Of a DNA stretch of 64,000 nucleotides, positions 5,609 to 31,959 are shown piece after piece (the first letter of the stretch is position 1; the number at the start of each line of letters is the position of its first letter). Position numbers and translations under genes: made by a program. This DNA is from an uncultured Pseudomonadota bacterium (GTDB lineage: Bacteria; Pseudomonadota; Alphaproteobacteria; RF32; CAG-239). The stretch lies in NCBI GenBank assembly GCA_902785935.1, contig CADAAN010000001.1, positions 88,900 to 152,899 of the forward strand. The letters run 5' to 3'. The notes beneath the pieces are model-generated. The model worked only from the letters and a program-made list of their open reading frames with translations. It did no database searches and had not been told where the DNA came from.

Positions 5609-6145
5609 ATATATGATGTATATATCGGTTTTAAAAATGCGGCTTTTCAGGATGATAGGAAGATAACAAATGCCGAGCTTCCGGCTAACTTGAAACAAAT
5701 CGGACATGCGGCTTTTTACAATACAAGCATCGAATATTTTGCAATTCCGGAGGGATTTAAAAAAAATAATAGCTCTGATTATCAATTGTCAAACAACACT
5801 CATCAGCTCGGAAGTGTTGCACTCAAAGGTATTATTATTGATAGGGATGCGTATTTTGACAAAGATATGCTCTTAGGGGCAAATTTATCAAACATCGAAT
5901 CGATTTATTGCGAAAAATCAAATATAAATTGTCAATCACTCAAAGATGATAACGACTTAAAGAATAAGCTTATTCTTTATGATAAGCAAAGCGACGGCAA
6001 TTCTATGTTAAAATGTAATGGTAAAACCTATCAAAGTATTAATGACCTCTTAAAAGGCAATTATGACGTACGCCGAATCTATACCATTGAAGAAGCCAAC
6101 TTTGTCGCCGGTGAAAAAAATACTTTTTCAATAAGGTACAGATAA
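5609..6145 (+). pseudogene. 5'-truncated remnant of a BspA-type LRR protein carrying the conserved KIRYR C-terminal tail
   Basis: Open frame begins directly after a stop at 5606-5608 with no signal peptide; contains BspA-like LRR motif (IGHAAFYNTSIEYFAIPEG) and ends RRIYTIEEANFVAGEKNTFSIRYR, the tail shared with five other loci. Confidence 0.5.
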
Positions 6146-6212
6146 TTTTTTAACTGTTTGATTTTTCAGTAAAAAATATAAAATGTTTCACGTGAAACAT
6201 CTTAAAAACAGG

Positions 6213-7556
6213 TTATTTTCCGATGCAAAATGAAGAAAATATCTTATCTAAAATTTCATTAACTTCAATTCTGCCCGTGATTTTACCAATAGCACGGGCG
6301 GCAATACGAATATCTTCTGCCCCAAGTTCAATCGGCTTTTCAAAACTAAACCTGTCCAAATTTTCCAAACACTCTTCAAGCGCTTCACGATAGCGAGCCC
6401 GCGTCATCAGATATCCGTTTTGAGAACCTATGCCTGTTTTGATTTTTTGCGTAATCGCTTCAAAAACTTCTTTAAGACCTGCTTTTGTTTTGGCAGAAAT
6501 GAGATAACAACCCTCATTTTTTAATTTAGAACATTGTTCATCTGTCAATATATCTGACTTATTTGCTAAATATAAAATCTTATTTTGAATATCTTTCGGC
6601 AAACTTAAAAATATTTGTTTTGTACTTTGTGTTCCGTCAAAAACAGCTAAAATAAAATCAGCTTCATTCATTTTTTGATAAGCGATCTCAATCCCTTGTT
6701 TTTCAATTATATCTTCTGTCTTCCGAAGACCGGCCGTATCGGTGAGTATGACAGGATAACCATTGACATCCAGATGAATATCTATTGCATCGCGCGTTGT
6801 CCCCGCAATATCCGATACAATTACAGCTTTTCTATCTGTAATAGCATTAATTAAGCTTGATTTACCGGCATTTGTCGGTCCAATAATCGCAACCTTAAAA
6901 CCGTCACGCAATCGCTCACCGATATTTGCATTTTGAATATGATTTCTGATATCTGTTTTAAGTTTAAATACAGTGTTCAAATTTTGTTCAATGACTTCTT
7001 TTGAAATTTCTTCATCCGGAAAATCAATATATGCTTCTAAGTAGGCGTAAATCCTCAAAAGTTCTTCTCTCCAACCTTCATAAAGATTTTTTAAGTTACC
7101 TGACATTTGCAAAACAGCCTGCCTTTGCTGTTCTGATGTTTCAGCATCAATCAAATCGGCAAGACCTTCCGCCTCGGTCAAATCCATTTTTTGGTGATAA
7201 AATGCACGTTTTGAAAACTCTCCAGCTTCAGCCGTTCTGAAATCAGCAATCATTGATAAGCTTTCTAAAACAGAGCTTAAAACAGCCTTTGAGCCATGCG
7301 TTTGAATTTCAACAATATCTTCACCCGTAAAAGAATTTGGCGCCTTAAAATATAAAACAAGGCCTTCATCCAAAATTTTATGCGTTTTTGCGTGATATAT
7401 TTTTGAAAAATAAGCATGTCTCGGTGTTATTTTTAAAACATCAATATCCGTCATTTTTTGAATCGCATCAAGCGCATTTTTACCTGAAATTCTGACAACG
7501 GCAACACCTGATTTTCCATAAACCGTCGAAAGCGCATATATCGTATGACCACACAT
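6213..7556 (-). CDS. mnmE: tRNA modification GTPase MnmE (TrmE)
   Basis: 447 aa, G-domain motifs (GPTNAGKSSL), C-terminal CIGK. Confidence 0.9.
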   Translation of the reverse strand: MCGHTIYALSTVYGKSGVAVVRISGKNALDAIQKMTDIDVLKITPRHAYFSKIYHAKTHKILDEGLVLYFKAPNSFTGEDIVEIQTHGSKAVLSSVLESLSMIADFRTAEAGEFSKRAFYHQKMDLTEAEGLADLIDAETSEQQRQAVLQMSGNLKNLYEGWREELLRIYAYLEAYIDFPDEEISKEVIEQNLNTVFKLKTDIRNHIQNANIGERLRDGFKVAIIGPTNAGKSSLINAITDRKAVIVSDIAGTTRDAIDIHLDVNGYPVILTDTAGLRKTEDIIEKQGIEIAYQKMNEADFILAVFDGTQSTKQIFLSLPKDIQNKILYLANKSDILTDEQCSKLKNEGCYLISAKTKAGLKEVFEAITQKIKTGIGSQNGYLMTRARYREALEECLENLDRFSFEKPIELGAEDIRIAARAIGKITGRIEVNEILDKIFSSFCIGK

Positions 7557-15891: not shown

Positions 15892-16298
15892 TTTTTTAAC
15901 TTTCTTTTTTTTATACACACTTTATTAACCATTTATGTGTATAACTTGTTATATTGTGGGTTAGTTTAGCTTTTTATGCACGTTATTTAAATACTTTTAA
16001 AAGATTTATAAACATGTTGATATTTTTATCAACATTATGTGTATTATGTTTATAATACCTTATTTAATATTTTAAATATCTGAAAACAAATAAAAACATT
16101 TTTTTATTTTATGTTTATAAAACTGTTTATAAAAAATAATCAACAATTTTAACAAGCATATACAATGTACAACAATTTTTTTTAAATTTTTAAAGTAGAC
16201 AGGCTTGGCTGTTGATAATAAAAAATAGTAAAATAATTAAAAATAATATTGACAATTAAATTAAAATATGAAAAAAGAAATATGTTTTGATAAAAAAT

Positions 16299-16375
16299 GC
16301 GCTCTTAGCTCAGCAGGATAGAGCAACAGCCTTCTAAGCTGTGGGTCGGGCGTTCGAATCGCCCAGAGCGCGCCA
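16299..16375 (+). tRNA. tRNA-Arg (anticodon TCT)
   Basis: Cloverleaf read directly: acceptor gcgctct/agagcgc, D-arm tagctcagcaggatagagc, anticodon stem acagc/gctgt with loop cTTCTAa, T-arm gggcgttcgaatcgccc, encoded CCA. Confidence 0.9.
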
Positions 16376-16389
16376 ATACAAAAAAAGAC

Positions 16390-16414
16390 AGCCCCAGTAA
16401 GGGGCTATTTTTTT
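16390..16414 (+). terminator. intrinsic terminator after tRNA-Arg
   Basis: agcccc-agtaa-ggggct hairpin followed by T7 run. Confidence 0.6.
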
Positions 16415-16680
16415 GTATCGTGAAAAGCACCGGCAAGGCTGGTGTTCGAAAGAGCTTATAGCGAGGGGTAGAAAAATAAATTCCTTATGATAGGATGAAG
16501 TGTCTGGCAGACGCAAAACAGCCCCGTTTAGGGGCTGCAAGTGGTAAAGGCTTTTGCCGTTAATAAAGAACCGCCGGCTATGCCGGCAGGTTGCTTTTTT
16601 TAACTGCTTTAATGGACTGGGCTGCAGCTTAAAAAGCCTCGCTCGATCTTGTCGTGTGTCGACGTTGCCGACACACACTG

Positions 16681-16865
16681 CGATTTCGAACCGCTTGCCT
16701 CTTCACCTCAGGTAAAATAGCCAACAAAAAACCTCCCACAAGGGGAGGTTTCATGTTGGCTGCCCATCCTGTACAGTGACGCAACTTTTACAACAACACC
16801 GCAAAGAAGTAATTTCCATCAAAGACCAACTCCGTTATGTGAGGGAAAGATTAGCAGCATAATTC
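16681..16865. repeat. direct repeat copy 1 (core ~105 bp ~90% identical to copy 2, plus weaker upstream extension with preceding hairpin)
   Basis: 16758-16865 aligns to 17924-18031 with ~12 mismatches; both preceded by a hairpin and a tt(t)cgaaccg motif. Confidence 0.7.
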
Positions 16866-17021
16866 TTGTATGTGAAACTTATCATACATTACACTTATTC
16901 TAAGAAAATTGTTAATATATAAAAAAAACATATTTCATAAAATTTCACAACAAAAATGCTTGCTTTTTCCATTAGATGCTATATAATCCAACAAAAAATA
17001 CAATTATGTTATAATATAATT

Positions 17022-17753
17022 ATGAAAAAGAAAGTGAAAAAATTATTAGACAAGCAACAAATTGAGTTGCTGGAAAGTTTTTCTGCAAGAGAAGCCCAAA
17101 TTGTTTTGCTAGAACAAGCTAAAAAAGGATGGCTTTGTCCTAAAGTGCAAAAAAAGCTTTTTTCGATGCCTAATGGTATGGAAATCTTAATTATCCAAGC
17201 GCAAAATGGTCCTATTTCTGCTTACGTACAGATGCTGTTATTTGATTATCCTAATGGATTGAAAGTCCTAATGAAACAGGCCGAACGTGGCGAACTTCAT
17301 ACCAAATTGCAAAGAAAGATTTGTTCCCTTCCTAATGCCTCAAAGTTTTTATTGGCACAATCTAGAAAAGGACAACTTGATTTCGATACTTTGAGAAAGG
17401 CTATGGATTTGTCTGATGGATCCGAAATTACTCTTGAACAAGCAAAAAAAGGTCATCTTTTTCACGAAGATATTCAAATGAAAGCCTGTTCACTTCCTAA
17501 CGCAGATGAAATCATGTTAGAGGAAGCAAAAAACGGCTATATCTATAGTGATAAAGTTCTGCTAAAGGCTTGCGAACTATCGAATGCAGAAGAAATTATT
17601 CAGGCTCAGGCAACCAAGCATGCACTCCGTGATTGTGTACAAATCAAAGCAATGGACTTTAGATGCGGAAGAGAAATTATGGTAGCGCAAATGCGTTTGG
17701 GAAGTCTCTGTAGTGAAGCTCAGCGTAAAGCTATCTCATTGGGCTATATTTAG
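17022..17753 (+). CDS. tandem-repeat protein (8 x ~27-aa repeats, motif ..I.L.QA..G.L....Q.K.CSLPNA)
   Basis: ORF with eight consecutive degenerate 27-aa repeats; start placed at the ATG at 17022 (MKKKVKK) instead of the upstream in-frame ATG. Confidence 0.5.
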   Translation: MKKKVKKLLDKQQIELLESFSAREAQIVLLEQAKKGWLCPKVQKKLFSMPNGMEILIIQAQNGPISAYVQMLLFDYPNGLKVLMKQAERGELHTKLQRKICSLPNASKFLLAQSRKGQLDFDTLRKAMDLSDGSEITLEQAKKGHLFHEDIQMKACSLPNADEIMLEEAKNGYIYSDKVLLKACELSNAEEIIQAQATKHALRDCVQIKAMDFRCGREIMVAQMRLGSLCSEAQRKAISLGYI

Positions 17754-17862
17754 GCCTAAACTTTGAGTCAAAAAAGCGATTGTCAAATAAATGGCAATCG
17801 TTTTTTTGATATTCGATTGAAAAATTCTGTATGTTAAGAAATTTCAAAATAGGTCTATTCGA

Positions 17863-18031
17863 ACCGATAAAAATGAAGAAAAAACAAGGGCTTACGATAC
17901 AAAATCGAAGCCCTGTTCAAATTGGCTGGGCGTCCTGTACAGTGCCGCAACTTTTACAACAACACCGCAAGGAAGTAATTGCCATCAAAGAACAACTCAG
18001 TTTTGTTAGGGAAAGATTAGCAGCTTAAATC
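17863..18031. repeat. direct repeat copy 2 (overlaps 3' end of a 65-aa ORF 17831-18028)
   Basis: See copy 1; the two copies flank the repeat-protein gene. Confidence 0.7.
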
Positions 18032-18250
18032 GGTGTTATAAAGATTTTTACGTAATCTGACCTCTGGGGGGATGGGGCATTCCTCTTGCCATCCCCTCTT
18101 TATGCCGCTTTACGTATGAGGCATAAAATTTATTTTCACTTCCGAATAGATAAAAAAATTCGTTTAGATCAAATTTTTTCAAATTTTTATCTTTTAAACC
18201 ATGTTCTAACAAATAGAGAAACATAAATTTTAGAAAGGAGGTGATTAAAA

Positions 18251-18469
18251 ATGTTGTATAGAGTTTTTGAATCTGATAATGTAAAAGTAAAGGATCCAAT
18301 ATATTTTTCTACGTCTTTTGACAATTTAGAAGAAGCATTACAGTGGTTTAACGATTTGACTGATACATATAAAGACAATCGCAAATCTTATGTTTCTTTG
18401 TGTGCAATTTTTGATGAAGATTACCCTAAAATCAAAAAAAAGACCAAAAGACAAAGTAAAAGTAAATAA
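18251..18469 (+). CDS. hypothetical small protein (72 aa)
   Basis: Preceded by an unusually strong SD (aaaggaggtgattaaaaATG) and followed by an intrinsic terminator. Confidence 0.5.
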   Translation: MLYRVFESDNVKVKDPIYFSTSFDNLEEALQWFNDLTDTYKDNRKSYVSLCAIFDEDYPKIKKKTKRQSKSK

Positions 18470-18492
18470 TAATAAACTTTAGTTACACAATA

Positions 18493-18529
18493 AGCCAACC
18501 GTATTTATAACTAACGGTTGGTTTTTTTA
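18493..18529 (+). terminator. intrinsic terminator
   Basis: ccaaccgt-loop-acggttgg 8-bp stem followed by T7. Confidence 0.65.
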
Positions 18530-18649
18530 TATTCCTACCAACTTCGAATCTAAACAAAATCAACTCAAATCAAATTTTTTATCAAATTTATTCATTCTCA
18601 CGAAAATTTTTTTTGATCTCAGCAGTTCTTACAAACAGGAGAACTGAAA

Positions 18650-19690
18650 ATGAGATGCAATCAAAGACCATTCAAAAAGAATAAAACGGCAAAAAAAACG
18701 CCAGAGAAACCAACAAATGAAGAGTTGGAATCCTTTGTTAGCAACGTCTTTCAAACAATAACCTCTTTAAATTCTGTAGCTTCCAGTAATATTTATATTA
18801 CTTATAACAATATTTATACTTATAAATGTATTTTCAATAGTATAAAGAAACCTATTGATATCAATAAAATTCATTTAAAAGATTGGAAAAGAGTTAATCC
18901 AACAGAACGTTCAGCATTCTTTTCATACTTCTTAGCAGCGAATCCAAATTATGCAAACATATTTCCATTTACTCTTAATCTATCAAATGAAATGGCAGAA
19001 TCTTACGCTGACCTAACATATCCTGAGAAGGAAATATGTATTAGAAAAAGATTGAATGATGAGTTTCTGCATAAAATACATTATATACCGATGTACAGCT
19101 TTGTAATTGAAACAATACCTTATCTGCATATTCACGGTGTAATACAAGTTGATCCGACGTCGAGAGAAAAGCTGAGAGAAGCTATGAAAATTGCTGCTTT
19201 TGGGCGTGATTATGCACAATCGACAATCCATAGGAGGATGTTGAGAATTGAAAAAAAATACAGAAAAACACCTGACCACTGGTTTCGCTATATCCATAAA
19301 TACGAATCAGCAATGGAATCACTATTTATGACTACCTCTCTAAAACGTCTGATCCAATCGCAATATGAAACACTCCGCAAAGACTTGAATGATTACCAAA
19401 AATCAAAGAAATCTACACCTAACACACCAAAAATTACTGAAGAATATATACCAGAACCAAGAATTGAACACCCATATAAACCGAAAACAGATACAGTATG
19501 CCAAACAATTGATCCTTATGAACAATCCTTCCAACAAGTAGCAGATGATAACGAAACACATAATGATATTGAATCCGAAAAGTATATTAGCAACAATATT
19601 ATCAGGGAATATACACTTATCAAACCATATACCCTAAGCTCAAATTATCAACGTCTATACATAAGTTACATTCCACCACCGCTTGTTTGA
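18650..19690 (+). CDS. putative rolling-circle replication initiator / HUH endonuclease-like protein
   Basis: 346 aa; candidate HUH motif (YLHIHGVIQV) followed ~45 aa later by a Tyr-rich motif (KKYRKTPDHWFRYIHKY, Y..KY), the order expected for Rep motif 2 then motif 3. AT-rich codon usage unlike the flanking core genes. Confidence 0.35.
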   Translation: MRCNQRPFKKNKTAKKTPEKPTNEELESFVSNVFQTITSLNSVASSNIYITYNNIYTYKCIFNSIKKPIDINKIHLKDWKRVNPTERSAFFSYFLAANPNYANIFPFTLNLSNEMAESYADLTYPEKEICIRKRLNDEFLHKIHYIPMYSFVIETIPYLHIHGVIQVDPTSREKLREAMKIAAFGRDYAQSTIHRRMLRIEKKYRKTPDHWFRYIHKYESAMESLFMTTSLKRLIQSQYETLRKDLNDYQKSKKSTPNTPKITEEYIPEPRIEHPYKPKTDTVCQTIDPYEQSFQQVADDNETHNDIESEKYISNNIIREYTLIKPYTLSSNYQRLYISYIPPPLV

Positions 19691-19718
19691 TGTATTATTA
19701 TGCTTTACTTGATTGTGT

Positions 19719-20159
19719 TTATATTATTTGTACTGTTGGGTTAAAAATGCAAATCATATTGTCAAACATACCGCATTTATTAGTAACGGTTTGTCCGAAT
19801 GAGTTTACCCCTTCAAATCTAATTCTACCTTTAATGTATCGTATTTCACAGTTGGGTAATATAATCTCATGAAATATTTTAGTTGAAGTTGAAACAGGGA
19901 GTAACATTACAACGAGTTTATTTTTTAGGTATTCTGTATATGCTTTCCTAATGAATAAATCCTTTAGTGGTCTGGAATATGGTGGGTTAACAAAATTACT
20001 ATTACCCCATTCAACTTCTAAACCATTCCAAAGTTCCAGATTATGACAAAGAGGACACGGATCAAAGTCGAAATGGAACTCTTTATCCAGTTCTTCATAT
20101 AAATACTTTGGAGTTTTCCAATCATCCGTTACTGTCAAATTTCTATCTTTCATATTCAT
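19719..20159 (-). CDS. phage-type DNA N6-adenine methyltransferase (Dam, PF05869-like)
   Basis: 146 aa; FDFDPCP ... NPPYS catalytic motif order characteristic of phage N6A methyltransferases. Confidence 0.65.
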   Translation of the reverse strand: MNMKDRNLTVTDDWKTPKYLYEELDKEFHFDFDPCPLCHNLELWNGLEVEWGNSNFVNPPYSRPLKDLFIRKAYTEYLKNKLVVMLLPVSTSTKIFHEIILPNCEIRYIKGRIRFEGVNSFGQTVTNKCGMFDNMICIFNPTVQII

Positions 20160-20265
20160 ATAGAACTGGAATAAGCGGTAGTTAGCATAGATTCGGTGAT
20201 TATAACAACAAAAAAAAGAGGTATATAAAACACCTCTTTCAATGCTTTGGTTATTTAATGTATAC

Positions 20266-20592
20266 TCAAAATTCTGATGTTAGTAGTATACTTAGCACAC
20301 GATTGGTAAGCGTTATATCAGCAGGATTTGGCGATGCATATTCGTATTCTTTATCATAATAGTCTATTTTCCACATTATTTGCTTGCCGTTATAGTCAAA
20401 TTTTCCCATATCATGCTCAAAATAGGGATCGTTTGCTGTTGTGAAGTCATCATAAGTAGAAACTAAAAGCATAATAGCAGCTACATCCATCTTTGGTAAT
20501 GCTCTTATTCCTCTACTTAATACAACTTTTCCACCTGTAAAGTTTTTGCGGAAATCATCATTCAAATACCTGATAAGTTTTGTACTTCCCAT
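20266..20592 (-). CDS. hypothetical protein
   Basis: 108-aa ORF in the phage/plasmid-like module, RBS-like aggataaacaATG. Confidence 0.4.
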   Translation of the reverse strand: MGSTKLIRYLNDDFRKNFTGGKVVLSRGIRALPKMDVAAIMLLVSTYDDFTTANDPYFEHDMGKFDYNGKQIMWKIDYYDKEYEYASPNPADITLTNRVLSILLTSEF

Positions 20593-20606
20593 TGTTTATC
20601 CTAATT

Positions 20607-20738
20607 TTAATATAACGGAACTATTTCTGTAAAAACAGCTGCCGATTTCTTTTTTTCTTCATAACAAAAATCCATTGCTTGCCTTAAAGAATAAAACAGA
20701 AAAGGCATTCTGACGTTATTTATGATTACTTGGTACAT
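20607..20738 (-). CDS. possible small protein (43 aa) with strong SD
   Basis: ggaggataacaatATG on the minus strand (too short for the ORF track); MYQVIINNVRMPFLFYSLRQAMDFCYEEKKKSAAVFTEIVPLY. Confidence 0.3.
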   Translation of the reverse strand: MYQVIINNVRMPFLFYSLRQAMDFCYEEKKKSAAVFTEIVPLY

Positions 20739-20836
20739 ATTGTTATCCTCCTATCTATATTGGTTTTTAGATAACAGTATAGCATCGTTTCTTTATATAA
20801 GAACAGTAAAAAAAGTATGATTAATTTTTGTATGAA

Positions 20837-21220
20837 TTAAATTGATACAGGTTGATGCGAAAATATTAGTGCAACAACGTCTTTTCGTTTGTTTTGATCA
20901 ACTACTTTACCATTGATAAACCAAATCTTCGGGACATTACCAAGTATAAATTGGAAAAGCCGTGAACTTGTTGAAACCGAAAGAATTATAACAGAGTCAC
21001 GTCCACGCACAAATTCCCAAAATGCTTGTTCAACTGCCTGCGCCTTTTCTTTTTTGTTTTTGTTAAGTAGGTTTATGATATTGATATGGGCTGCAGAAGT
21101 ACCAAACTTAGAAGAATTTGAAAATGAGTGAAATATTTTTTGTTGTACTTCTGCAAGATTCATAGTCTTTACCAATGAAATGTTCCCATATCTTATTAAT
21201 AGAACTCGGTTTTTTAACAA
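20837..21220 (-). CDS. hypothetical protein
   Basis: 127-aa ORF, module context. Confidence 0.4.
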   Translation of the reverse strand: MLKNRVLLIRYGNISLVKTMNLAEVQQKIFHSFSNSSKFGTSAAHINIINLLNKNKKEKAQAVEQAFWEFVRGRDSVIILSVSTSSRLFQFILGNVPKIWFINGKVVDQNKRKDVVALIFSHQPVSI

Positions 21221-21408
21221 AAATTACTTGTCGACAACTTAAAAGTAATTTGCCCACAGATGATAAATCAGAAAACCGTCATAGAGTCGTTTTTAGACTC
21301 GCTGAGGTGGTGCTTCTGTTTTTTGTGGTAAACTTATGCTTGAAACCACGAATCACACCACAGAGTCCTTAAAACCAAAATAAATGGTATCAAAATTTAA
21401 AATTGGAT

Positions 21409-21762
21409 TTACTTTTTTGATTTACATAAACCTTCAATCTGTTTTTCCAGAATGTGCAGCGTGTTTTCATCTAATTTCCTTAATAACACTATGATACGGT
21501 TTATGGTGTTTTCGTTCGATTTTTTGTAATCAGAACTGTTAACATCATCAACATCAAGAATGGTAAGTAGGCTAACATCTAAGCTTTGAGCTATTTTTTT
21601 GAGTGTACTGATTTTCGGATCGCCTAAACCACGCTCTAAATTGGAAATTGTATTTACCACCCTTTCACATCTTGCGGCTAATTCCTCTTGGCTGACACCT
21701 TTTGTCTTTCTCAAAAAGGCTATTTTTCTTCCGATGTTATATATAAAATCGTCTTTATGCAT
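21409..21762 (-). CDS. XRE/Cro-C1-type helix-turn-helix transcriptional regulator
   Basis: HTH signature KGVSQEELAARCERVVNTISNLERG; divergent from the giant surface-protein gene. Confidence 0.7.
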   Translation of the reverse strand: MHKDDFIYNIGRKIAFLRKTKGVSQEELAARCERVVNTISNLERGLGDPKISTLKKIAQSLDVSLLTILDVDDVNSSDYKKSNENTINRIIVLLRKLDENTLHILEKQIEGLCKSKK

Positions 21763-21949
21763 TGGTTATACTCCACAAATGATGTTACTACCATTGCAGT
21801 TTATGTTCCACGCAACAAATTGGTATTTTTTAGTATTGACAATCCAAAAATACAAATATATTGTGATATATATAGTAATCTATTGTGAGATTTTAATCGT
21901 AGATTAGTATATAGCCATTATTACTGAACGCCACAGAGAGATACGTACT

Positions 21950-24900
21950 ATGAACTTGAATATAAAATTAATGCTTTTTATAGCAATTTTTTCTACTTTT
22001 TCCTATGAAACTCAGGCACGATATTTATCTACAGGTGATATTTATGAATATGCCAGAACTCGTAATTACTGGGCATTATCGAAAATTGCACGATATGTTG
22101 ATATGCAAGATGGTAGTGGTAACACAGCCTTGTGTTTAGCTGTTGCTAACAAAGATGAAAAAGCTTATAATGTTTTAATCCAGTATGGTGCAAATCCTCA
22201 ACCTTATTGTTTACAGTCGGCAATTGTGGCAAGTGGCAGCAGTGGAACATTTTTAGGTATGGGAACGACTGGGTGGCTAACCACAGGAGCAATAGTTGCC
22301 GCTGGCGCAGGAGTTGCAGCTGCTGCTGGTGGAGGCGGTGGCGGAGGTGGTTCGTCAGATTCATCATCTTCAAACAATCCCTCTCCATCAATTACTTGTG
22401 TAAATGGTTCAATAAGTAGTGGTCAATGCCAATGTGATGAAGGTTGGATTGGTGACACTTGTGACACAGTGCAAACCTGTTCTTATAATACAACATCATG
22501 TTCAAGTGGTTATGAAGAAACTGGTAATACATGCAAATCAGGCAGCATAACGTATAAAGAATGTAAAGCCAAAACAGTTCCGAGTGGATACACAATAACA
22601 CCATGTGGTGATGGTTATATGCAAATTGGTACATTTTTATCAGGAACACAGACTTATTACAAATGCCAAGCAAATACTTGCGCGGGATATCAATCCAGTT
22701 GCGGTGATGGTTATCATGCAACAACAGATACTTGTTTATCTGGTACAACAACTATGTATAAATGTGAAGCAAATGTGTGTGAAGGGTATGTGGATGGTTG
22801 TAGTTCGGGTTATCACGCAACAACAGACACTTGTTTGTCTGGTGCTAAAACTATGGTGAAGTGTGAAATCAATGATTGTTCTGAATACCAAACAAGTTGC
22901 GGTGAAGGATATAATGCAACACAAAGTTGTTTAAGTGGGAATACGCCATATTATACTTGTACACCAAAAGAAGTACCTACTGGGTATACCTCAACACCTT
23001 GCAGTGAAGGATATATTACAAAAGATACCATTATATCTGGTACAACACCTTATTATAAATGCGAAGTAAATGCTTGTACTGGATATGTGACAAGTTGTAA
23101 TCAAGGTTATCACACAACAGCGGATACTTGTAAATCAGGTTCAAAGACTATGTACAAATGTGAAGCTGATAGTTGTACTGGTTATAACTATACAGTTTGT
23201 CCAACGGGGTATGCGCAAAGTGATAGCTGCTTATCGGGTCTTACAATGAAGTATAAATGTGAGAATTGTGCAAACGGTTACGGAAGAGATGAAAAAGGTA
23301 ATTGTGTAACAAAAGAGGCAGATAAAGTCATAGCTACAGGAACCGCAAATAATATAGATCGTACTTATACTGATACCTTAACCATAAAAGGGTACAAAGA
23401 TTTATATGTTTTCAAAGGAAATTACACTTACGCTGCTAATGCTGAAACATCTGGGACATCTTCTTATCAAACAATAATTATGGACGTAATAAAAAAAGGA
23501 GATGGCGATTTCTATGGTGTGTTTAATAGTCAAGGTTCTAGCTATAATTCCAAAAACGCTGATGGAACTATCAAATTAGAAAAAACTGGTGACGGAGATG
23601 TGTATGCCCTTTGGGGAGAAGACGGTGTATCTAATTCGTCAGCATCAGGATCATATGGTGAGACAGCCACAGGTAATATTGAAATTTTGAATAACGGAAA
23701 TGGTAATATATATGGTGGTTATTCCAAAGAAGGTTCTACTATCAATGCATATTCAGGCAAATCATCAGGTATTGCTAATGGAGCAAGTACTGGTATCATA
23801 AAGATGTTAAATAATGGAGACGGAAATGTATACGGTTTACTATCCGATACAAAAACAGGAACTAACGCCAGTTCCGTTAATACTGTAGGCAAAAATTATA
23901 GCACTACATCCTCTGCAGAAGGACGTATAATTATCAATAATACAGGAGATGGTGACGTGTATGGAATTAAAAGCGGTTCGGATGTATATAATACCTCTAG
24001 CCTAATAAGAGGTGGTGCATCTGGTAGTGATATTAGATACGGAAATACAAATGTAGATGGATATATACGAATAAAGAACAGCGGAGGAGGAAATTCGTAT
24101 GGACTGTATGGTACAAACACGTATAGCTCATCATTTGAAAGTGATGCAGAATATACAACTGTTGTTGCCTTACAAACTTCTAATAGTGTAATAGATATTT
24201 TGAATTTAGGTAAAGGCAATGCATATGGTATGTATGCGGTAGGAACAAGCTCTGCCGTTGCCAAGGCCGAGAACCGTACTTATTCTGGCAGTTTTTCTCT
24301 TTATCCAGACCAAACGTATTCAGCAACATCCAATATTAAAATATTAAATAATGATGATGGATTTGTTGTAGGAATTTATAGCAAAGGAAAAGTTACAAAT
24401 GATGGCAATATTACTATTCATAATCTTGGAGAGGGAACAGCTATAGGAATTTATGCTGGTAATGCCATTCAAAATTCAACAGTAACAAATTCTGGAAGTA
24501 TCAATATTACACGTGTTAATTACATAGATGACAACGCTACACAAGATGATACATCAGATGATGAGAATTATACAGCTACATCTATGGCTGGTGGTACAAG
24601 TATCGGTATCTATGGGGCTTCAGGTTCAACAATTAAAAATACGGGGACGATTACAATTAGCGGAGCTTCCATAGCCTATGGTATTTATGCTGAATCGGGA
24701 GCAACAGTCAAAAATACTGGCACAATAACGATTGATGGTAATACAAATCATGTAAATAAAATCAAGCTTAACGGTTCACCGCTTTTTCAAGACGGTAAAC
24801 TGATTGTTACAAACAACACTCAAAGCAGTCTGATGTCTGTATCAAGTGTTAAACCAGCTTCACTAAATCTAAACGATTTTGGAGGAACTGTAGTAGCGTC

Positions 24901-26125
24901 TGATACTTCACAGTTTACTGTGGAAGGTGCGATATCTGGTGATTTGGCCATTAATAACAATGTGATTGAAAATGGTTTTGATACGACATATTCTGTAAAA
25001 GATATGATTCAGGCTTCTGATGCCAGTGGCTTAAATTTGCAATCACAATCGGCTTTATTTGATGCCTCGTTACAAAACAATACCGATGCCGTGATGACGA
25101 TGAAAGCGTTTAACGATGTGGTTGAAAACAGCTCGGTTGCCGACTTCTTACAAAAAAACTATGCAGCAAACAATAACGAAGATTTGTTCAAAGTTCTGAA
25201 ATCTGCCGAAACTGTGGCTCAACTCAACAGCAATATTGATGATTTGTTCGGCAAAGATATGCTTTCACGTATGGCGTTTGAAGATTTATCGATGCTCCGT
25301 GAAGTCAGTTTGGATATGAATAATCACCTATTCGAAAAAGAAGGTTCGTTTGCTTTCGGAGAAAATATATCGCCTTCAAGCTACGACAATAACATCGGAT
25401 CTGTAGGACGTTATTCATTGAATGGATATAATAATGGAAAAATGAGCTTTGGGCTTGGCGTATCAATCACCGATGTTAGCACTGATGACGGGCATAGTGA
25501 CAACCGACGCTTTGACCGTAGTTTTATGATGAGTGCTCCAATCGGCTATAAAACACACGGATTTGAGTTGATCACGGCTCCGAAAATGGGTTATACCGAT
25601 GGAACTTATGATCGTGAAGGCTTTAATAACAAGACTTATGAGGGCAAAATCCAAAAACGTATGTTCGCTTTGATGAATGAAGCACGTTACCCAATTAAAT
25701 TCGGTGGTTTAAGATTTACGCCAACGGCTGAATTTAATATGATTGGTTATAATATCAAAGGTCATGAGGACGAACAACAATATGCATTGCGGATTAAGTC
25801 ACAAAACCATTATTCGGTTGAAACAGGTCTTGGTTTGATGGCTGAAAAAGAGTTTAAGCCGTTCAAAAATCACAAGTTTAGCGTAAATGGCGGTGTTACG
25901 GTTTATCATGAATTTGCTAATCCGTATGAGCTTGATGTAGCTATGAGTGGTATGTCTGGTACGTATCGCTTACATGATGAAAAACGCAGCGACAATCGTG
26001 CCGTTGTTCGCTTAGGTTTTGATTATAAACTGAAAGATGATCTTGATGTTACGGCGCATTTGCTAACTAATATTGACCGTGAATATCGTACAGACGCTGG
26101 CATCGACTTGAAATATCACTTTTAG
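21950..26125 (+). CDS. giant surface protein: signal peptide, ankyrin repeats, Gly/Ala-rich hydrophobic segment, Cys-rich EGF-like tandem repeats, G(D/N)G(D/N)VYG passenger repeats, C-terminal autotransporter-type beta-barrel
   Basis: 1391 aa. N-terminus MNLNIKLMLFIAIFSTFSYETQA. Ankyrin-like SGNTALCLAVANKDEKAYNVLIQYGANP. Hydrophobic/G8 segment GAIVAAGAGVAAAAGGGGGGGGSS. 38-aa Cys repeats (C..GY....DTCLSG..TMYKCE). C-terminal ~280 aa with alternating beta-strand pattern ending ...DLKYHF (terminal aromatic). Confidence 0.8.
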   Translation: MNLNIKLMLFIAIFSTFSYETQARYLSTGDIYEYARTRNYWALSKIARYVDMQDGSGNTALCLAVANKDEKAYNVLIQYGANPQPYCLQSAIVASGSSGTFLGMGTTGWLTTGAIVAAGAGVAAAAGGGGGGGGSSDSSSSNNPSPSITCVNGSISSGQCQCDEGWIGDTCDTVQTCSYNTTSCSSGYEETGNTCKSGSITYKECKAKTVPSGYTITPCGDGYMQIGTFLSGTQTYYKCQANTCAGYQSSCGDGYHATTDTCLSGTTTMYKCEANVCEGYVDGCSSGYHATTDTCLSGAKTMVKCEINDCSEYQTSCGEGYNATQSCLSGNTPYYTCTPKEVPTGYTSTPCSEGYITKDTIISGTTPYYKCEVNACTGYVTSCNQGYHTTADTCKSGSKTMYKCEADSCTGYNYTVCPTGYAQSDSCLSGLTMKYKCENCANGYGRDEKGNCVTKEADKVIATGTANNIDRTYTDTLTIKGYKDLYVFKGNYTYAANAETSGTSSYQTIIMDVIKKGDGDFYGVFNSQGSSYNSKNADGTIKLEKTGDGDVYALWGEDGVSNSSASGSYGETATGNIEILNNGNGNIYGGYSKEGSTINAYSGKSSGIANGASTGIIKMLNNGDGNVYGLLSDTKTGTNASSVNTVGKNYSTTSSAEGRIIINNTGDGDVYGIKSGSDVYNTSSLIRGGASGSDIRYGNTNVDGYIRIKNSGGGNSYGLYGTNTYSSSFESDAEYTTVVALQTSNSVIDILNLGKGNAYGMYAVGTSSAVAKAENRTYSGSFSLYPDQTYSATSNIKILNNDDGFVVGIYSKGKVTNDGNITIHNLGEGTAIGIYAGNAIQNSTVTNSGSINITRVNYIDDNATQDDTSDDENYTATSMAGGTSIGIYGASGSTIKNTGTITISGASIAYGIYAESGATVKNTGTITIDGNTNHVNKIKLNGSPLFQDGKLIVTNNTQSSLMSVSSVKPASLNLNDFGGTVVASDTSQFTVEGAISGDLAINNNVIENGFDTTYSVKDMIQASDASGLNLQSQSALFDASLQNNTDAVMTMKAFNDVVENSSVADFLQKNYAANNNEDLFKVLKSAETVAQLNSNIDDLFGKDMLSRMAFEDLSMLREVSLDMNNHLFEKEGSFAFGENISPSSYDNNIGSVGRYSLNGYNNGKMSFGLGVSITDVSTDDGHSDNRRFDRSFMMSAPIGYKTHGFELITAPKMGYTDGTYDREGFNNKTYEGKIQKRMFALMNEARYPIKFGGLRFTPTAEFNMIGYNIKGHEDEQQYALRIKSQNHYSVETGLGLMAEKEFKPFKNHKFSVNGGVTVYHEFANPYELDVAMSGMSGTYRLHDEKRSDNRAVVRLGFDYKLKDDLDVTAHLLTNIDREYRTDAGIDLKYHF
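22670..23300 (+). repeat. intragenic tandem repeats (~114 bp / 38 aa Cys-rich units) inside the giant protein gene
   Basis: Near-identical nucleotide units, e.g. ggttatca(t/c)gcaacaacaga(t/c)acttgttt(a/g)tctggt... repeated. Confidence 0.7.
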
Positions 26126-26145
26126 CAATAACAACCGAAACGAAT

Positions 26146-26176
26146 CGACCGCTGCATTTATTTGTGGCGGTTTTTT
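26146..26176 (+). terminator. intrinsic terminator after giant protein gene
   Basis: ccgctgc-atttatttg-tggcgg hairpin followed by T6. Confidence 0.6.
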
Positions 26177-26344
26177 GTAATAGGTAGAAGTAAATGAGTA
26201 TATTTTATCGGTAATCTTAGGCGTACTTCAGTATTACCAAAAAAAATGCTCCAAAATGGTAATATTAAGGTTATTTTTTACTTGACAACTAAAAAGTAAA
26301 TGATATACTAAGACTATAATATTACTTTTTGAAAGGTTAGAACG

Positions 26345-26917
26345 ATGAAATTTTTATATGCTCGTGTTTCAAGTTCAGACGGTTCGCAAAAACTCGATCG
26401 TCAACTTGTGGAATCTGGTAAATATGATGAAATTTTTGAAGATTACGCTTCAGGTGGTTCAACAAATCGTCCTAAACTGCAAGAAATGTTGAAATGGATT
26501 AGAAAAGGTGATGTGGTGGAAGTTCATAGCATTGACCGCTTAGCAAGAAACATCAATGACCTACTGCAAATCGTTAAAACCATTACAGAAGAACGTCACG
26601 CTGAAATCTACTTTATCAAAGAAAATCTACGTTTTACTGATGATACCGATAATCCATTTAACAAACTAACCCTTCAAATCATAGGTAGTATAGCCGAATT
26701 TGAAAGAAATATGATTAAAATGCGTCAGAAGGAAGGTATTGCTATTGCCAAAGCAAAAGGTGTTTATTCTAAGGAACGGAGCAAAAAATTATCGCTATCC
26801 AAACAAGCCGAATTGAAAAAAGACATTCAAGATAAAGTCCGTGTATGTGAAATCCTCAAGAAATACGGAATAACGAAACCCACATATTATCGCTATAAAG
26901 CACAATGGGAAGAATAA
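26345..26917 (+). CDS. small serine recombinase (resolvase/invertase family) with C-terminal HTH
   Basis: 190 aa; N-terminal YARVSSSDGSQKLDRQ catalytic-serine motif; TTGACA-17-TATACT-like promoter upstream. Confidence 0.85.
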   Translation: MKFLYARVSSSDGSQKLDRQLVESGKYDEIFEDYASGGSTNRPKLQEMLKWIRKGDVVEVHSIDRLARNINDLLQIVKTITEERHAEIYFIKENLRFTDDTDNPFNKLTLQIIGSIAEFERNMIKMRQKEGIAIAKAKGVYSKERSKKLSLSKQAELKKDIQDKVRVCEILKKYGITKPTYYRYKAQWEE

Positions 26918-26946
26918 TAGTAAATGGTTGTAATTTTCCGAAGTTC

Positions 26947-27288
26947 TCAGCCAAAATCTTTCTTTAGGAGTTGTATATATTCTTCTATATGTGCAAGTAG
27001 CTGATCATCTAACTGGTAAATCGTTTGTATGACCTGATTTTCCTTCCTGATACGTGTGACTGATTTGTTTTTTGTTATCCGTGCGTCTAGTAATTCATCA
27101 ATACTTATATCAAAGTAATTAGCTAAAGCACAAACCAACTCTAACTTTGGTATTACTTTTCCTGTTTCCAAATTTGATATTGTTCTCCAACTGACACCTA
27201 CTGCTTCAGCTAATTGTTCTTGAGTTAGCTTTTTTGTTTTGCGTAATGCTTGAACTTTTGAACCAATTTGAACAGGATCAACAGTCAT
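26947..27288 (-). CDS. XRE-family HTH transcriptional regulator
   Basis: HTH LTQEQLAEAVGVSWRTISNLETGK; immediately downstream of the nuclease gene on the same strand. Confidence 0.7.
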   Translation of the reverse strand: MTVDPVQIGSKVQALRKTKKLTQEQLAEAVGVSWRTISNLETGKVIPKLELVCALANYFDISIDELLDARITKNKSVTRIRKENQVIQTIYQLDDQLLAHIEEYIQLLKKDFG

Positions 27289-27289
27289 T

Positions 27290-27757
27290 TTACTTTTTCT
27301 CTTTGGATTTTTTCAATACACTTGATGGTATGTACTTATTACAACCACCTTGATCAAGCATATATTGGTTAACATCAATCACACCAGCGGATTTTATGTC
27401 ATCCAGATACACTTTTCCTAAAATACGACCAAAAGAATCACGTTTTTCCCACTCAACCCGTATATACCGATGATCTTTAAGTAGATTTTTTAGCTGTTTC
27501 CGTGATTGCTTACCGTGTTTAATGACTTCATCAACCGACAAACCATAGTATTTTTGCTGAAATCTGGTGTTGCTATTCTTTCCTGTTTCATAGCAATCAA
27601 CATCCAGCAAGCGAATTTTAGTCGTTTCATTATTAACCAGAGCCGTCAATGTATCGCCATCGTTAATCTTGATGATAGTTGCAACAAATTCGTGTGCTGA
27701 TACCGATTGCACCAACAAAATCGTGAATAAAACCAGATAAAAAACCGTTTTTTTCAT
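27290..27757 (-). CDS. secreted thermonuclease (SNase/micrococcal-nuclease-like)
   Basis: Start placed at MKKTVFYLVLFTILLVQSVSA (signal peptide); SNase-type motifs (IKINDGDTLT...IRLLDVDCYE). Confidence 0.7.
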   Translation of the reverse strand: MKKTVFYLVLFTILLVQSVSAHEFVATIIKINDGDTLTALVNNETTKIRLLDVDCYETGKNSNTRFQQKYYGLSVDEVIKHGKQSRKQLKNLLKDHRYIRVEWEKRDSFGRILGKVYLDDIKSAGVIDVNQYMLDQGGCNKYIPSSVLKKSKEKK

Positions 27758-28370
27758 CAACTCTTCCATAAAAGAAGACCACCTTTTGATTAAGGCGGTC
27801 GGAGAGTTCAAAATCAAGTCTACGAGTTGATCCTTCCAACCTTTAGAGCAAAACTCCTATTGTATACGTTGGAAGCTCCCCGACCATCATCGGGGATATA
27901 TACATCATCAGCCTTTATACAAGCTGACAATGTTGTCGGCGTATATCCACACCGCGTAGACAGAGGTTTTGAAGCCCTCCGCACCTTTTCGGGCACTGAG
28001 CACAGAATAAACCTGTGCCTAACCAGACAATATAGCAAGAATCTTAAAAATCAATAAAAAAGGAGAAAGAAGTTAAAAAGCCTTCTAATTCCGTACATTT
28101 TACTCAGCTAAAATTTCCGTTTATGTCAGATAAATGGAAATTTATTTTCGAAAGTGTCGTCAAGAAAAGAATTCTAAAAATGTAACTAGCGACATTGGGT
28201 TTTCGTCCGCTAGGAGACCTTAGCTTAAGTTACAAAAATGAAAAACTTAGAAGAAGACATAAAAAAACTAATCGGTGCGACAGATGAAACGTTAGATCAA
28301 ACCGAAACATTATTTAAATTTACAAAAGCAATGGAATGTTTGAACAATTGTATAAAGGAGGGAAAAAACA

Positions 28371-29702
28371 ATGAAAGCAGTGACGTTTGCAAGAGTTTCG
28401 TCAAAATATCAGGAACAGAATTACAGTCTGGAAGGGCAAAATACACACCTTTTCAATTATGCCAAAGCAAATAAACTCGACGTTATAAAATCTTATGAGA
28501 TTTCTGAAAGTGCGACAAGAGGTGATCGCACAAAATTTAAGGAAATGATAGATTTTTGTTGTTCGCAAAAGGAATGTGTTTCAATCATAGTAGACGATGT
28601 TGACCGCCTTTTGAGAACGTTTTCGGATGCGCCAGAGATTGAAAAACTTGTACAAGAAGGACAAATAGAGATACATTTCTATAATACGTCTCTTATTTTG
28701 ACGAAAAATTCAACACCTGATGATTATTTAAAATTTCACGAATTAGTTTTAGATTCGGAAAAATATATAGCAAAGTTTAAGAAAAATACAGCTCGTGGTC
28801 GAAATGAAAAAGTTATGGAAAAATGTATGGCCGCTTGGAAAGCACCTTGTGGTTATGAGAATTTTGAGCAAGATGATAAAAAAAAATCGATTCGAAAAAA
28901 AGAACCAGATGCCACAAATCTAAAGAAACTTTTTGAACTTTATTCCTTAGGCGGAACATCAATTCGTAAATTAGTTGCTTTAGCTGATGAGTACGGAATC
29001 AAAACAAAAAATGGAAATAAAATTGGTGTATCCACTATGATTGGGATTTTAAAAAACCCGTTTTATTACGGAGAAATGTGTTATAATGGTAAATTATATC
29101 GACACAATCACGGTGCTATAATATCAAGAGAGTTATGGGAAGCTTGTCAAAAACAGCATAAGCTTCAATCATCAAAGTCATTCAAGCAAGGTCGAATTCC
29201 TTATCTGTATCGGAATGTTTTTAAGGATTGGTACAAAAACCTTACTTGCTCTTGTGAAACAAAGAAAAACAAGTATATCTATATAAGTTACTATAGAGAT
29301 TCTAAGTATAGGTCTTATGTGAATGAAAATGATATTAATGACCAAATTGTTAGCATTCTAAACCAAATTTCAATACCAAAAAATTTTATAGATGATTATA
29401 ATCTTTATATACAATCAACACAACAAGATGAAATTGCATTTAAAGCTGCTGAAAATGGGCATATCAAGGCTGAAATAACAAAATATGATAATAGATTAAG
29501 CAGATTACTTGATAGATTTCTTGATAATGAAATGCCAGAAGAAGAATATGAAAAGAAAAAGCAGGAATATGAAGAAGAAAAATCAAAACTCGAAAAGAAA
29601 ATCCAAAATCAAGGTACAATTGAACCTGATTCAAAACAAATTTCAACAGAATCAATTCATTTATTCTCTCGTTTAGGTGATTCCAAATGGGACTGGATAT
29701 AA
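28371..29702 (+). CDS. large serine recombinase (paralog A), probably frameshifted at its 3' end
   Basis: N-terminal catalytic domain (FARVSSKYQEQNYSLEGQ), recombinase domain and zinc-ribbon (APCGYENF...CSC), strong SD aaggaggg. The ORF stops at 29702 but homology to paralog B continues in another frame to ~29827 (NKQMLLRLIFKELKIRDG vs NKQLLLHFIFEKLELKEG). Confidence 0.8.
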   Translation: MKAVTFARVSSKYQEQNYSLEGQNTHLFNYAKANKLDVIKSYEISESATRGDRTKFKEMIDFCCSQKECVSIIVDDVDRLLRTFSDAPEIEKLVQEGQIEIHFYNTSLILTKNSTPDDYLKFHELVLDSEKYIAKFKKNTARGRNEKVMEKCMAAWKAPCGYENFEQDDKKKSIRKKEPDATNLKKLFELYSLGGTSIRKLVALADEYGIKTKNGNKIGVSTMIGILKNPFYYGEMCYNGKLYRHNHGAIISRELWEACQKQHKLQSSKSFKQGRIPYLYRNVFKDWYKNLTCSCETKKNKYIYISYYRDSKYRSYVNENDINDQIVSILNQISIPKNFIDDYNLYIQSTQQDEIAFKAAENGHIKAEITKYDNRLSRLLDRFLDNEMPEEEYEKKKQEYEEEKSKLEKKIQNQGTIEPDSKQISTESIHLFSRLGDSKWDWI

Positions 29703-29891
29703 AAAACAAGCAAATGTTACTGAGATTGATATTCAAAGAACTCAAGATTCGAGATGGAAATGTTGGGTATAGCCTTAACGAACCATTTTCCTATTTTATT
29801 AAACAAGAATCTCAAGCATCAGCATAACTTTATTAATTAATTTGATTAAATTTCGAAGCTCTGGTAAATTTACCAAAAAGGAAACGAAACT

Positions 29892-31583: not shown

Positions 31584-31587
31584 AGCA
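31514..31587 (-). tRNA. tRNA-Gln (anticodon CTG)
   Basis: Minus-strand cloverleaf read directly: acceptor tgcttca/tgaagca, anticodon stem gcgga/tccgt with loop ttCTGac, T-arm cttggttcgagtccagg, discriminator g plus CCA; resembles enterobacterial tRNA-Gln anticodon/T arms. Confidence 0.8.
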
Positions 31588-31707: not shown

Positions 31708-31959
31708 TGGAGTGCCCTGATAGGGTACGGGGCTTTAAAACAGCCTTTCAGATAGACAGTGAAGGATAACGCTGTATTTAGTGTTGTTTTTTTGTTTTAA
31801 ACAATAGTTATCCCCGACAGATGTTGGGGAGTCTGTAACGGATGTACAAGGATATATTCCTAAAGGTTATGGAAGTCATTTTCTATCTGATGATTGTTTT
31901 ACTCCCCGTCGCTCTTTAAAAGTGCGGCTTTTTTAAAACGTAAAAACAGGAGAAATAAT
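31708..31959 (+). promoter_or_regulatory. conserved structured 5' leader (copy 1) ending in a terminator-like hairpin immediately upstream of the RBS of the LRR gene
   Basis: ~75% identical to the minus-strand leader at 57368-57627. Shared blocks: ccctgatagggtacgggg, cagtgaaggataac.ctgt, tagtgttgttttttt, ttatccccga, ggaagtcattt, ccccgtcgctcttt..ggtgcg.cttttttt. Hairpins are maintained with compensatory changes. Confidence 0.5.

Follow-up and report, generated by a model that had tools for sequence, protein, structure and literature searches.

A 64,000-nt stretch from an uncultured Pseudomonadota bacterium (GTDB lineage Alphaproteobacteria; RF32; CAG-239), positions 88,900–152,899 of the forward strand of contig CADAAN010000001.1 in assembly GCA_902785935.1 and hereafter called the window, carries two similar copies of a short sequence on either side of a gene for a repeat protein. 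The locus raises the question of what the repeated unit is and why it is present twice. We call the unit X and its copies X1 and X2. X is very probably the 3′-terminal coding segment of a large serine recombinase (LSR) gene of phage origin, which was split by a phage attachment site (attP) inside the gene upon integration at a tRNA-Gln.

Repeat detection paired positions 16750–16865 with 17916–18031 (116 nt, 88%), and a gapless count gave 102 matching bases of 116. The 105-nt core, 16758–16862 against 17924–18028, is identical at 94 positions (89.5%), in agreement with the initial annotation of a direct repeat of about 90% identity, and over the 100 nt on each side of the core the identity drops to random level (31% upstream and 29% downstream). 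A 37-nt core pattern allowing up to three mismatches occurred twice in the window, against zero expected. Both copies are open in one shared frame that runs to a homologous TAA (16860–16862 and 18026–18028), as had been noticed. The frame of copy 1 is open for only 48 codons and has no in-frame ATG; in copy 2, the open stretch spans 72 codons and includes ATGs at 17831 and 17873, and copy 2 forms the 3′ part of a 65-aa open reading frame (ORF; 17831–18028), also as annotated. The hairpin and the motif TTCGAACCG described ahead of each copy were found again, the folds at 16719–16761 (–29.6 kcal/mol, z –5.9) and 17886–17916 (z –4.4) and the motif at 16685–16693 and 17859–17867. The proposed extension of the repeat to 185 bp did not hold up, as it consists of this common architecture of hairpin and motif and not of alignable sequence. 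As a bare DNA motif, TTCGAACCG was not enriched within the window.

The substitutions indicate that X is coding sequence. Differences between X1 and X2 number 4, 1, and 6 at the three codon positions, so that the modest third-position enrichment first reported is correct though weak for this pair, and it is strong with more distant copies (1, 1, and 10 for the relatives L006 and L008; 0, 1, and 6 for copy 1 and L008). Across lineages, the pN/pS of the X frame was 0.04–0.6 versus 0.9–2.4 in the other two frames. Given this plus-strand signature, X is translated, or was until recently, though no start is conserved. Exact 20- to 21-nt core words, run against public DNA, located X in only one other species-level genome, a related one, a sheep-rumen alphaproteobacterial metagenome-assembled genome (L004); the metagenome collection gave a chance match only (L005) and the viral collection nothing, the pattern being too strict for relatives. 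Protein searches that took first the 65-aa ORF and next a profile as the query matched about 20 small called ORFs that have the C-terminal ~34 residues in common and unrelated N-termini. Two main types of X were present, ending in ...QLLQQHRKEVIAIKEQL..VRERLAA and in ...MFINHRSEILSMKEQVQLIRGVLAA, each followed by a stop.

The parent gene of X is seen among the homologs of an LSR encoded in the window at 29892–31583 (plus strand; 563 aa; PF00239 Resolvase, 1.9e-15; PF07508 Recombinase, 8.7e-12). Using this LSR up to the junction G, fused to X2, as the query, we obtained 599 homologs at E ≤ 1e-20 and sorted the C-termini of the best-scoring 120 of them with regular expressions. In 28 of the 120, an X-like tail is contiguous with the enzyme (…HR.EV.AIK.QL.YVR.KLAA and a stop), while in 74 the translation of an antisense tRNA follows directly after the same G codon, 9 of these matching the tRNA-Gln(CUG) tail of the window; the other 18 have different or truncated C-termini. 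Examples of the intact form are P0029, ...EPQNIIKKQEVRPQNLTSVQCG (pre-junction LTSVQCG) followed by CPNCTIFELQTLRILRAHRAEVLAIRQQLSYVREKLAA and a stop, and P0027, ...SVQYG followed by WQKEEYVERKSAQLYCVLVNHRSEILEMKEQVQLIRSLFAA and a stop. Because the intact and the tRNA-fused C-termini part at the same G codon, attP is placed inside the integrase gene; integration at a tRNA 3′ end therefore would swap the last ~34 residues, with X as the displaced piece. Of the intact tails, 24 of 28 end in [LFIV]AA (13 LAA, 6 FAA, 3 IAA, and 2 VAA), and the integrated form in the window ends in ...PTIRR. The earlier idea of a decayed duplicate small gene was right in that the copies are gene fragments under coding constraint, but their parent is a recombinase gene of ~575 aa and not a small gene.

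The genomic context of the two forms agrees with their C-termini. We checked three contigs among the X-tailed homologs and three integrated loci. The contigs with the intact form (L013, L014, and L015) are free phage contigs without a tRNA and carry RecT, YqaJ, SSB, Dam, lysis genes, tail genes/XkdX, and the reverse transcriptase of a putative diversity-generating retroelement. The pre-junction tail of P0041 is near-identical to that of P0029, and its ORF overlaps an antisense tRNA-Gln(UUG) in a prophage (L017) that has the same gene order, SSB-GapR-...-recombinase, as the phage form. At the locus L016, an LSR 86% identical to that of the window belongs to a tandem LSR pair and its ORF again runs into tRNA-Gln(CUG); this locus was examined with a 10-kb flank, and the far end of the island, with the expected X site, is outside that reach. 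The exchange is also seen around X itself. The P0021 ORF has the same upstream region as P0002 and then antisense tRNA-Gln in place of X, and L011 and L006 share a neighborhood (NTP_transferase, PolyA_pol, and a gene of 149/151 aa) with a common flank that adjoins tRNA-Gln in L011 and X in L006. At the level of sequence, these comparisons show the split-gene architecture and its generality.

In the window, the integration target is a tRNA-Gln (CUG) on the minus strand at 31514–31587 (ARAGORN; Rfam, 57.7 bits), and the element is a 13.6-kb island, 17924–31517, with X2 at its recombinase-distal end and the tRNA-Gln junction at the other. The LSR ORF crosses a hairpin and then TTTGGCTG and enters the antisense tRNA-Gln without stopping first, so that the gene end reads ...ENPVQFG followed by CFTWTRTKIDGVRIRCPTIRR and a stop, these last 21 codons being antisense tRNA-Gln. 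An alignment across 15 loci put the junction at TTTGGCTG (31512–31519) and the crossover within TTGGCTG, which is common to 31512–31519, 17921–17929, and 16755–16762. The GGC at 31515 in the LSR ORF and the GGC that opens X (17924 and 16758) are in the same codon phase. X1 (16758–16862, plus strand; GCPSCTVTQLLQQHRKEVISIKDQLRYVRERLAA and a stop) and X2 (17924–18028, plus strand; GWASCTVPQLLQQHRKEVIAIKEQLSFVRERLAA and a stop) each amount to the detached last 34 codons and stop of an LSR gene, and our reconstructed fusion of the second LSR (LSR2) with X2 reads ...ENPVQFG followed by WASCTV...RERLAA and a stop.

We propose that attP lies ~34 codons ahead of the integrase stop and that recombination with the 3′ end of tRNA-Gln (core TTGGCTG) splits the gene. 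In the integrated state, the gene body would stand beside the tRNA with its frame continuing into the antisense tRNA as a new 21-residue tail, and the original tail, X, would be carried to the opposite end of the integrated element. Excision would reunite the two, with a predicted join of ...CAGTTTGGCTG to GGCGTCCTGTACAG... The predicted attP reads ...GAGAACCCTGTACAGTTTGGCTGGGCGTCCTGTACAGTGCC if the LSR2 tail is joined to X2 and ...CAGTTTGGCTGCCCATCCTGTACAGTGACG in the alternative joined to X1, and the predicted empty sites consist of the flank at 17923 plus GGCTGCTTCACCTGG for X2 and the flank at 16757 plus GGCTGCTTCACCTGG for X1.

The hairpins also find a place in this arrangement. A terminator scan detected an intrinsic terminator of tRNA-Gln (31478–31505, minus strand; –18.9 kcal/mol, z –4.0) lying antisense within the LSR tail, and a homologous hairpin is located inside the intact integrase gene of the free phage L013. 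The hairpin and U-tract ahead of the junction would stand in for the tRNA's own terminator, which is lost upon integration. The hairpin noticed at the outset is a terminator stem for the tRNA, preinstalled in the phage integrase ORF; TTCGAACCG is the codons F-E-P of the conserved tail motif (C/F/W)EP, and the K-K-Q in the tail is the antisense of the terminator U-tract. In the C-terminal 60–100 residues of the homologs P0022–P0141 (31300–31517 in the window), the linker from the conserved recombinase domains to the junction looks modular. Units (C/F/W)E(P/L)-x-(K/N)(K/N)(Q/K)G(L/F/V) appear in it two or three times over, which gives the impression of terminator or att modules piled up in the ORF on earlier occasions.

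The sequences to the left of the two copies bear on the second question. In tblastn searches, the intact phage tails aligned unbroken over 17846–18025 (P0029, E 2.7e-14), and therefore the left flank of X2 (KIGLFEPIKMKKKQGLTIQNRSPVQIG) is itself a recombinase-tail stump. It is a fossil of the last 26 pre-junction LSR codons (17846–17923, plus strand), includes ttcgaaccg, and is 95% identical to the flank of L007; the tail of the window's own LSR also aligned here (17840–17926). The hairpin within it reads on the minus strand as a stem and UUGUUUUUU, and the 65-aa ORF is a fossil composed of recombinase tail and X. Over copy 1, the phage tails aligned from the junction onward only (16758–16859; P0029, E 4.9e-11; P0045, E 6.8e-11). 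To its left is a probable decayed recombinase-tail fossil (16615–16757, plus strand) that holds TTCGAACCG, now out of frame, together with the first hairpin; 53 nt of it are 87% identical to the equivalent flank of L008, and the equivalent flanks of L006, L011, and L012 read ..WFEPNDKSATKKAPEKGLISG in frame up to the junction. Near the hairpin, a stem AGCCAAC...GTTGGCT with apparent compensatory changes is genuine as a fold, and we read it as a piece of the decayed tail and terminator region.

The simplest reading of the two copies is a head-to-tail stack of elements at one tRNA-Gln, a history that we regard as probable, though with a good deal less confidence than the origin of X. From left to right, the stack would consist of the decayed tail fossil (16615–16757), an older remnant (16758–17923) made of X1, the repeat-protein gene, and the 78-nt recombinase-tail stump, the island (17924–31517), and tRNA-Gln. 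The internal junction of such an array would re-form a unit of tail and X, and 17846–18028 has exactly that look. That the left flanks of the X copies resemble recombinase tails and not native tRNA flanks fits tandem stacking. Copy 1 most likely comes from an older, decayed element that retained the repeat-protein gene, which we read as cargo of that element between X1 and X2. The gene (17022–17753, plus strand) encodes 243 aa with about eight divergent repeats of ~27 aa (..L.QA..G.L....Q.K.C.LPNA..). The protein had no Pfam or PHROG match and only 28 matches, all weak, among 1.84 billion representative proteins, and Tandem Repeats Finder detected no DNA-level tandem repeat in the gene. The order of the insertions, the cognate LSR of each X, the reuse of an occupied site by a serine integrase, and any regulatory effect of the tail swap are inferred.

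Several observations weigh against these interpretations. Tandem stacking leaves unexplained how a serine integrase would insert repeatedly at an occupied site. The intact, unsplit homologs that we recovered all stood at about 61% identity or less to the LSR of the window, so that LSR2 joined to X2 is a reconstruction. An LSR att site is expected to be short, with imperfect dyad symmetry around a central dinucleotide; the best dyad of the reconstructed attP centers on the TG of GGCTGG and matches at 11 of 20 positions, a suggestive but not significant score that 35% of shuffles reach. X is located 0.7–1.4 kb from tRNA-Gln without a recombinase in L004 and L009, which requires extensive decay. 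Finally, X2 may belong to either of two LSR genes, as the island encodes another LSR (28371–29702, plus strand; 443 aa without the long tail; PF00239 Resolvase, 6.2e-15; PF07508 Recombinase, 2.4e-15) directly ahead of the one that reaches the tRNA.

Among other explanations, the best surviving was raised in the initial annotation: the copies may be att-like direct-repeat ends of a mini-element of ~1.2 kb. Such an element would carry the repeat-protein gene and be mobilized in trans by the island recombinase. The direct repeats do bracket one gene, both copies open with GGCTG and then CCTGTACAG, a plausible recombinase half-site, and a recombinase acting on the junctions at copy 1 and at the tRNA could in principle excise a larger element including the repeat-protein gene. 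The att-like character was well seen, as each copy begins exactly at the recombination junction GGCTG common to the tRNA-Gln 3′ end, but the copies represent one and the same end, the recombinase-distal one, of two elements in succession, with no recombinase between them. Moreover, serine integrases do not make long target duplications, the repeat is the coding sequence of the recombinase itself, and a recombinase-tail stump stands between the gene and copy 2, as a tandem junction predicts; in other genomes, X is single and lies beside unrelated cargo such as SnoaL, a resolvase, or restriction-modification (RM) systems. We therefore consider the mini-element unlikely.

Less likely again is a duplicated minus-strand small RNA gene of about 105 nt with a terminator, for which the plus-strand frame would be incidental. 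Strong minus-strand hairpins with U-tracts do follow both copies, and on the minus strand X has the 3′ end CAGCCA, which is similar to that of tRNA-Gln and takes the place of the tRNA relative to those terminators. Against this, Rfam searches of both strands of 16200–18300 gave only chance-level matches and no family even at E ≤ 10, X is contiguous with recombinase ORFs in the 28 intact homologs, and the minus-strand terminators are explained as tRNA terminators. The substitutions track the plus-strand codon frame, a pattern on which a minus-strand small RNA with its terminator was rejected as a candidate, and the suggested duplicated small RNA or 3′-untranslated region is not supported on the same grounds. 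The least credible of the alternatives makes X a small protein gene in its own right or the template of a tmRNA-like tag, since the ssrA-like end ...RLAA, the lack of a conserved start codon, and the conservation of the peptide at protein level are set against the absence of a tmRNA by ARAGORN, of a tmRNA family at E ≤ 10, and of a tRNA-like domain, the unrelated N-terminal parts of the called ORFs, and the identity of the peptide as the C-terminus of a 575-aa enzyme. A permuted two-piece tmRNA, to which the LAA end and the T-loop-like TTCGAA motifs had pointed, was rejected on either strand, with no acceptor or T-arm geometry and negative ARAGORN and Rfam results.

An attP inside an integrase gene has precedents. 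Myxococcus phage Mx8 targets a tRNA gene. The coding sequence of its integrase IntP/IntX contains attP, and a recombinant gene whose int 3′ end is new arises upon integration (PMC6070905, citing Tojo 1996 and Magrini 1999). The likeness lies in a crossover inside the integrase ORF and in C-termini that differ between the free and integrated forms, here 28 versus 74 homologs. Mx8, however, has a tyrosine recombinase and a myxobacterial host, whereas the family studied here consists of LSRs in uncultured gut and rumen Alphaproteobacteria and exchanges a segment of only ~34 residues ending in LAA; as serine recombinases, they are an analogue of the Mx8 type and not a member. Archaeal SSV-type (“suicidal”) integrases also have the att site within the integrase gene, forming a compact int-plus-att module, but they are tyrosine recombinases described as exclusive to archaea and the split likely inactivates the enzyme (PMC8371274). 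In the present family, the exchange is confined to the extreme C-terminus and does not touch the catalytic and DNA-binding domains. In the integration-dependent immunity of mycobacteriophages (BPs; clusters G, I, N, and P), attP lies inside the repressor gene's 3′ end, integration takes away 33 C-terminal residues that bear an ssrA-like degradation tag and so alters protein stability, and the integrase, too, has a C-terminal proteolysis signal (PMC4557955). That system splits a repressor with a tyrosine integrase, whereas here the serine integrase itself is split and a degron role of ...LAA is suggested by sequence only. The canonical LSRs of phiC31, Bxb1, A118, and SPbeta are not known to carry attP within the integrase gene, their targets are usually protein-coding genes, and a tRNA 3′ end is an unusual target for the class. 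Short att sites, no long target duplication, and directionality control are expected of LSRs (PMC3556126, PMC12286644). The family described here shares the resolvase and recombinase domains of these enzymes but targets tRNA 3′ ends and supplies a replacement terminator from its own ORF. The precedents of Mx8, SSV, and BPs are all tyrosine recombinases, and here the split gene is that of an LSR; a limited literature search turned up no account of such a split for serine recombinases, which is not proof of absence.

Conserved and amphipathic, the displaced segment has mostly LAA, FAA, IAA, or VAA as its last residues and resembles an ssrA-type C-terminal degron. Degrons of this type are recognized by ClpXP. 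By analogy, the free phage might make a short-lived integrase and the prophage a stable one; alternatively, the tail might influence directionality. As a tentative extension, with the odds somewhat against it, the homologs may form a widespread family of temperate-phage LSRs that target tRNA 3′ ends and have attP in their own ORF, in which the tail swap serves as an integration sensor altering stability or directionality. The free phage would then produce an integrase with an amphipathic C-terminal helix and an ...LAA degron and the prophage one with a host-encoded antisense-tRNA tail, the serine-recombinase equivalent of Mx8 IntP/IntX as well as of integration-dependent immunity. A leftover X such as copy 1 could be an alternative excision partner and let the element capture neighboring genes.

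For the annotation of the window, a repeat that looked strange and a “hypothetical protein” of 65 aa become scars of site-specific integration, and the 13.6-kb island and an older remnant are defined at tRNA-Gln. More widely, the 599 homologs point to a sizeable LSR family with conserved tRNA targets, attP in its own ORF, and an antisense tRNA terminator, and with attP in the ORF the integrase protein differs between the free and integrated states. Serine integrases are genome-engineering tools, and a tRNA-targeting set with a possible self-contained switch of directionality or stability would be of interest to that field. The split-gene signature couples an ORF that continues into an antisense tRNA on one side with an orphan fragment ending in ...LAA and a stop on the other, and it could mark prophage boundaries and separate free from integrated phage contigs in metagenomes.

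The remaining features of the island lie mostly between X2 and the tandem LSRs. The cargo (18029–28370) includes a Dam methylase, DUF3768, two helix-turn-helix (HTH) regulators, a 1391-aa protein, a small resolvase, and an SNase-like nuclease; Pfam and PHROG scans of this segment revealed no phage structural genes. Neither HTH regulator (21409–21762 and 26947–27288) is at a junction, and the 1391-aa ORF (21950–26125, plus strand) had zero Pfam or PHROG matches. The tandem LSR pair and the nearby small resolvase (26345–26917) are kept in the 86%-identical relative L016 (7456–11692), and the long tail reaching the tRNA belongs to the second LSR of the pair alone, the first being 443–487 aa. Of the zinc-ribbon domain with embedded coiled coil that is typical of phage-type LSRs, no Pfam zinc-ribbon family matched at E ≤ 0.01; the translation has a charged, helix-like stretch at about residues 340–420. 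Just past tRNA-Gln is a gene for a BspA-type leucine-rich-repeat protein (31894–32913), also present in L016 (12190–12888). At the other end of the locus, the ARAGORN scan identified a tRNA-Arg(UCU) at 16299–16375 on the plus strand. The interval from it to the first fossil (16376–16615) has no ORF of note and contains two G+C-rich hairpins (16388–16408 and 16571–16589) that score as bidirectional terminators and may be further remnants.

Related loci showed further patterns around X and the intact genes. The second type of X (..MFINHRSEILSMKEQVQLIRGVLAA and a stop) is followed in L007 (6001–6857) and L010 (6535–7388) by an opposite-strand small resolvase of 199 aa and then by RM systems, and such islands therefore carry defense cargo. 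A segment of ~135–150 nt comprising a recombinase-tail-like part and two hairpins occurs in differing genomic neighborhoods (L011, 10003–10167; L006, 5287–5437; L012, 10003–10163; L008, ~3737–3895) and in L011 has a 15-nt direct repeat of the tRNA-Gln 3′ end (TGGCTGCTTCACCTG) on each side; a minimal remnant is one possible reading of it, an independent small mobile unit another. On the phage contig L013, a reverse transcriptase gene (RVT_1; 5628–6719) beside tail-region genes suggests a diversity-generating retroelement. In L013 (3896–4090) and L015 (4828–5022), a small convergent gene of 64 aa with a Pfam NRDD match has an overlap of ~44 nt with the intact integrase gene at the 3′ end of the latter. 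After X, the window (18048–18224, minus strand) and L008 have a small minus-strand ORF sharing ...CTGACCTC.GGGGGGATGGGG.

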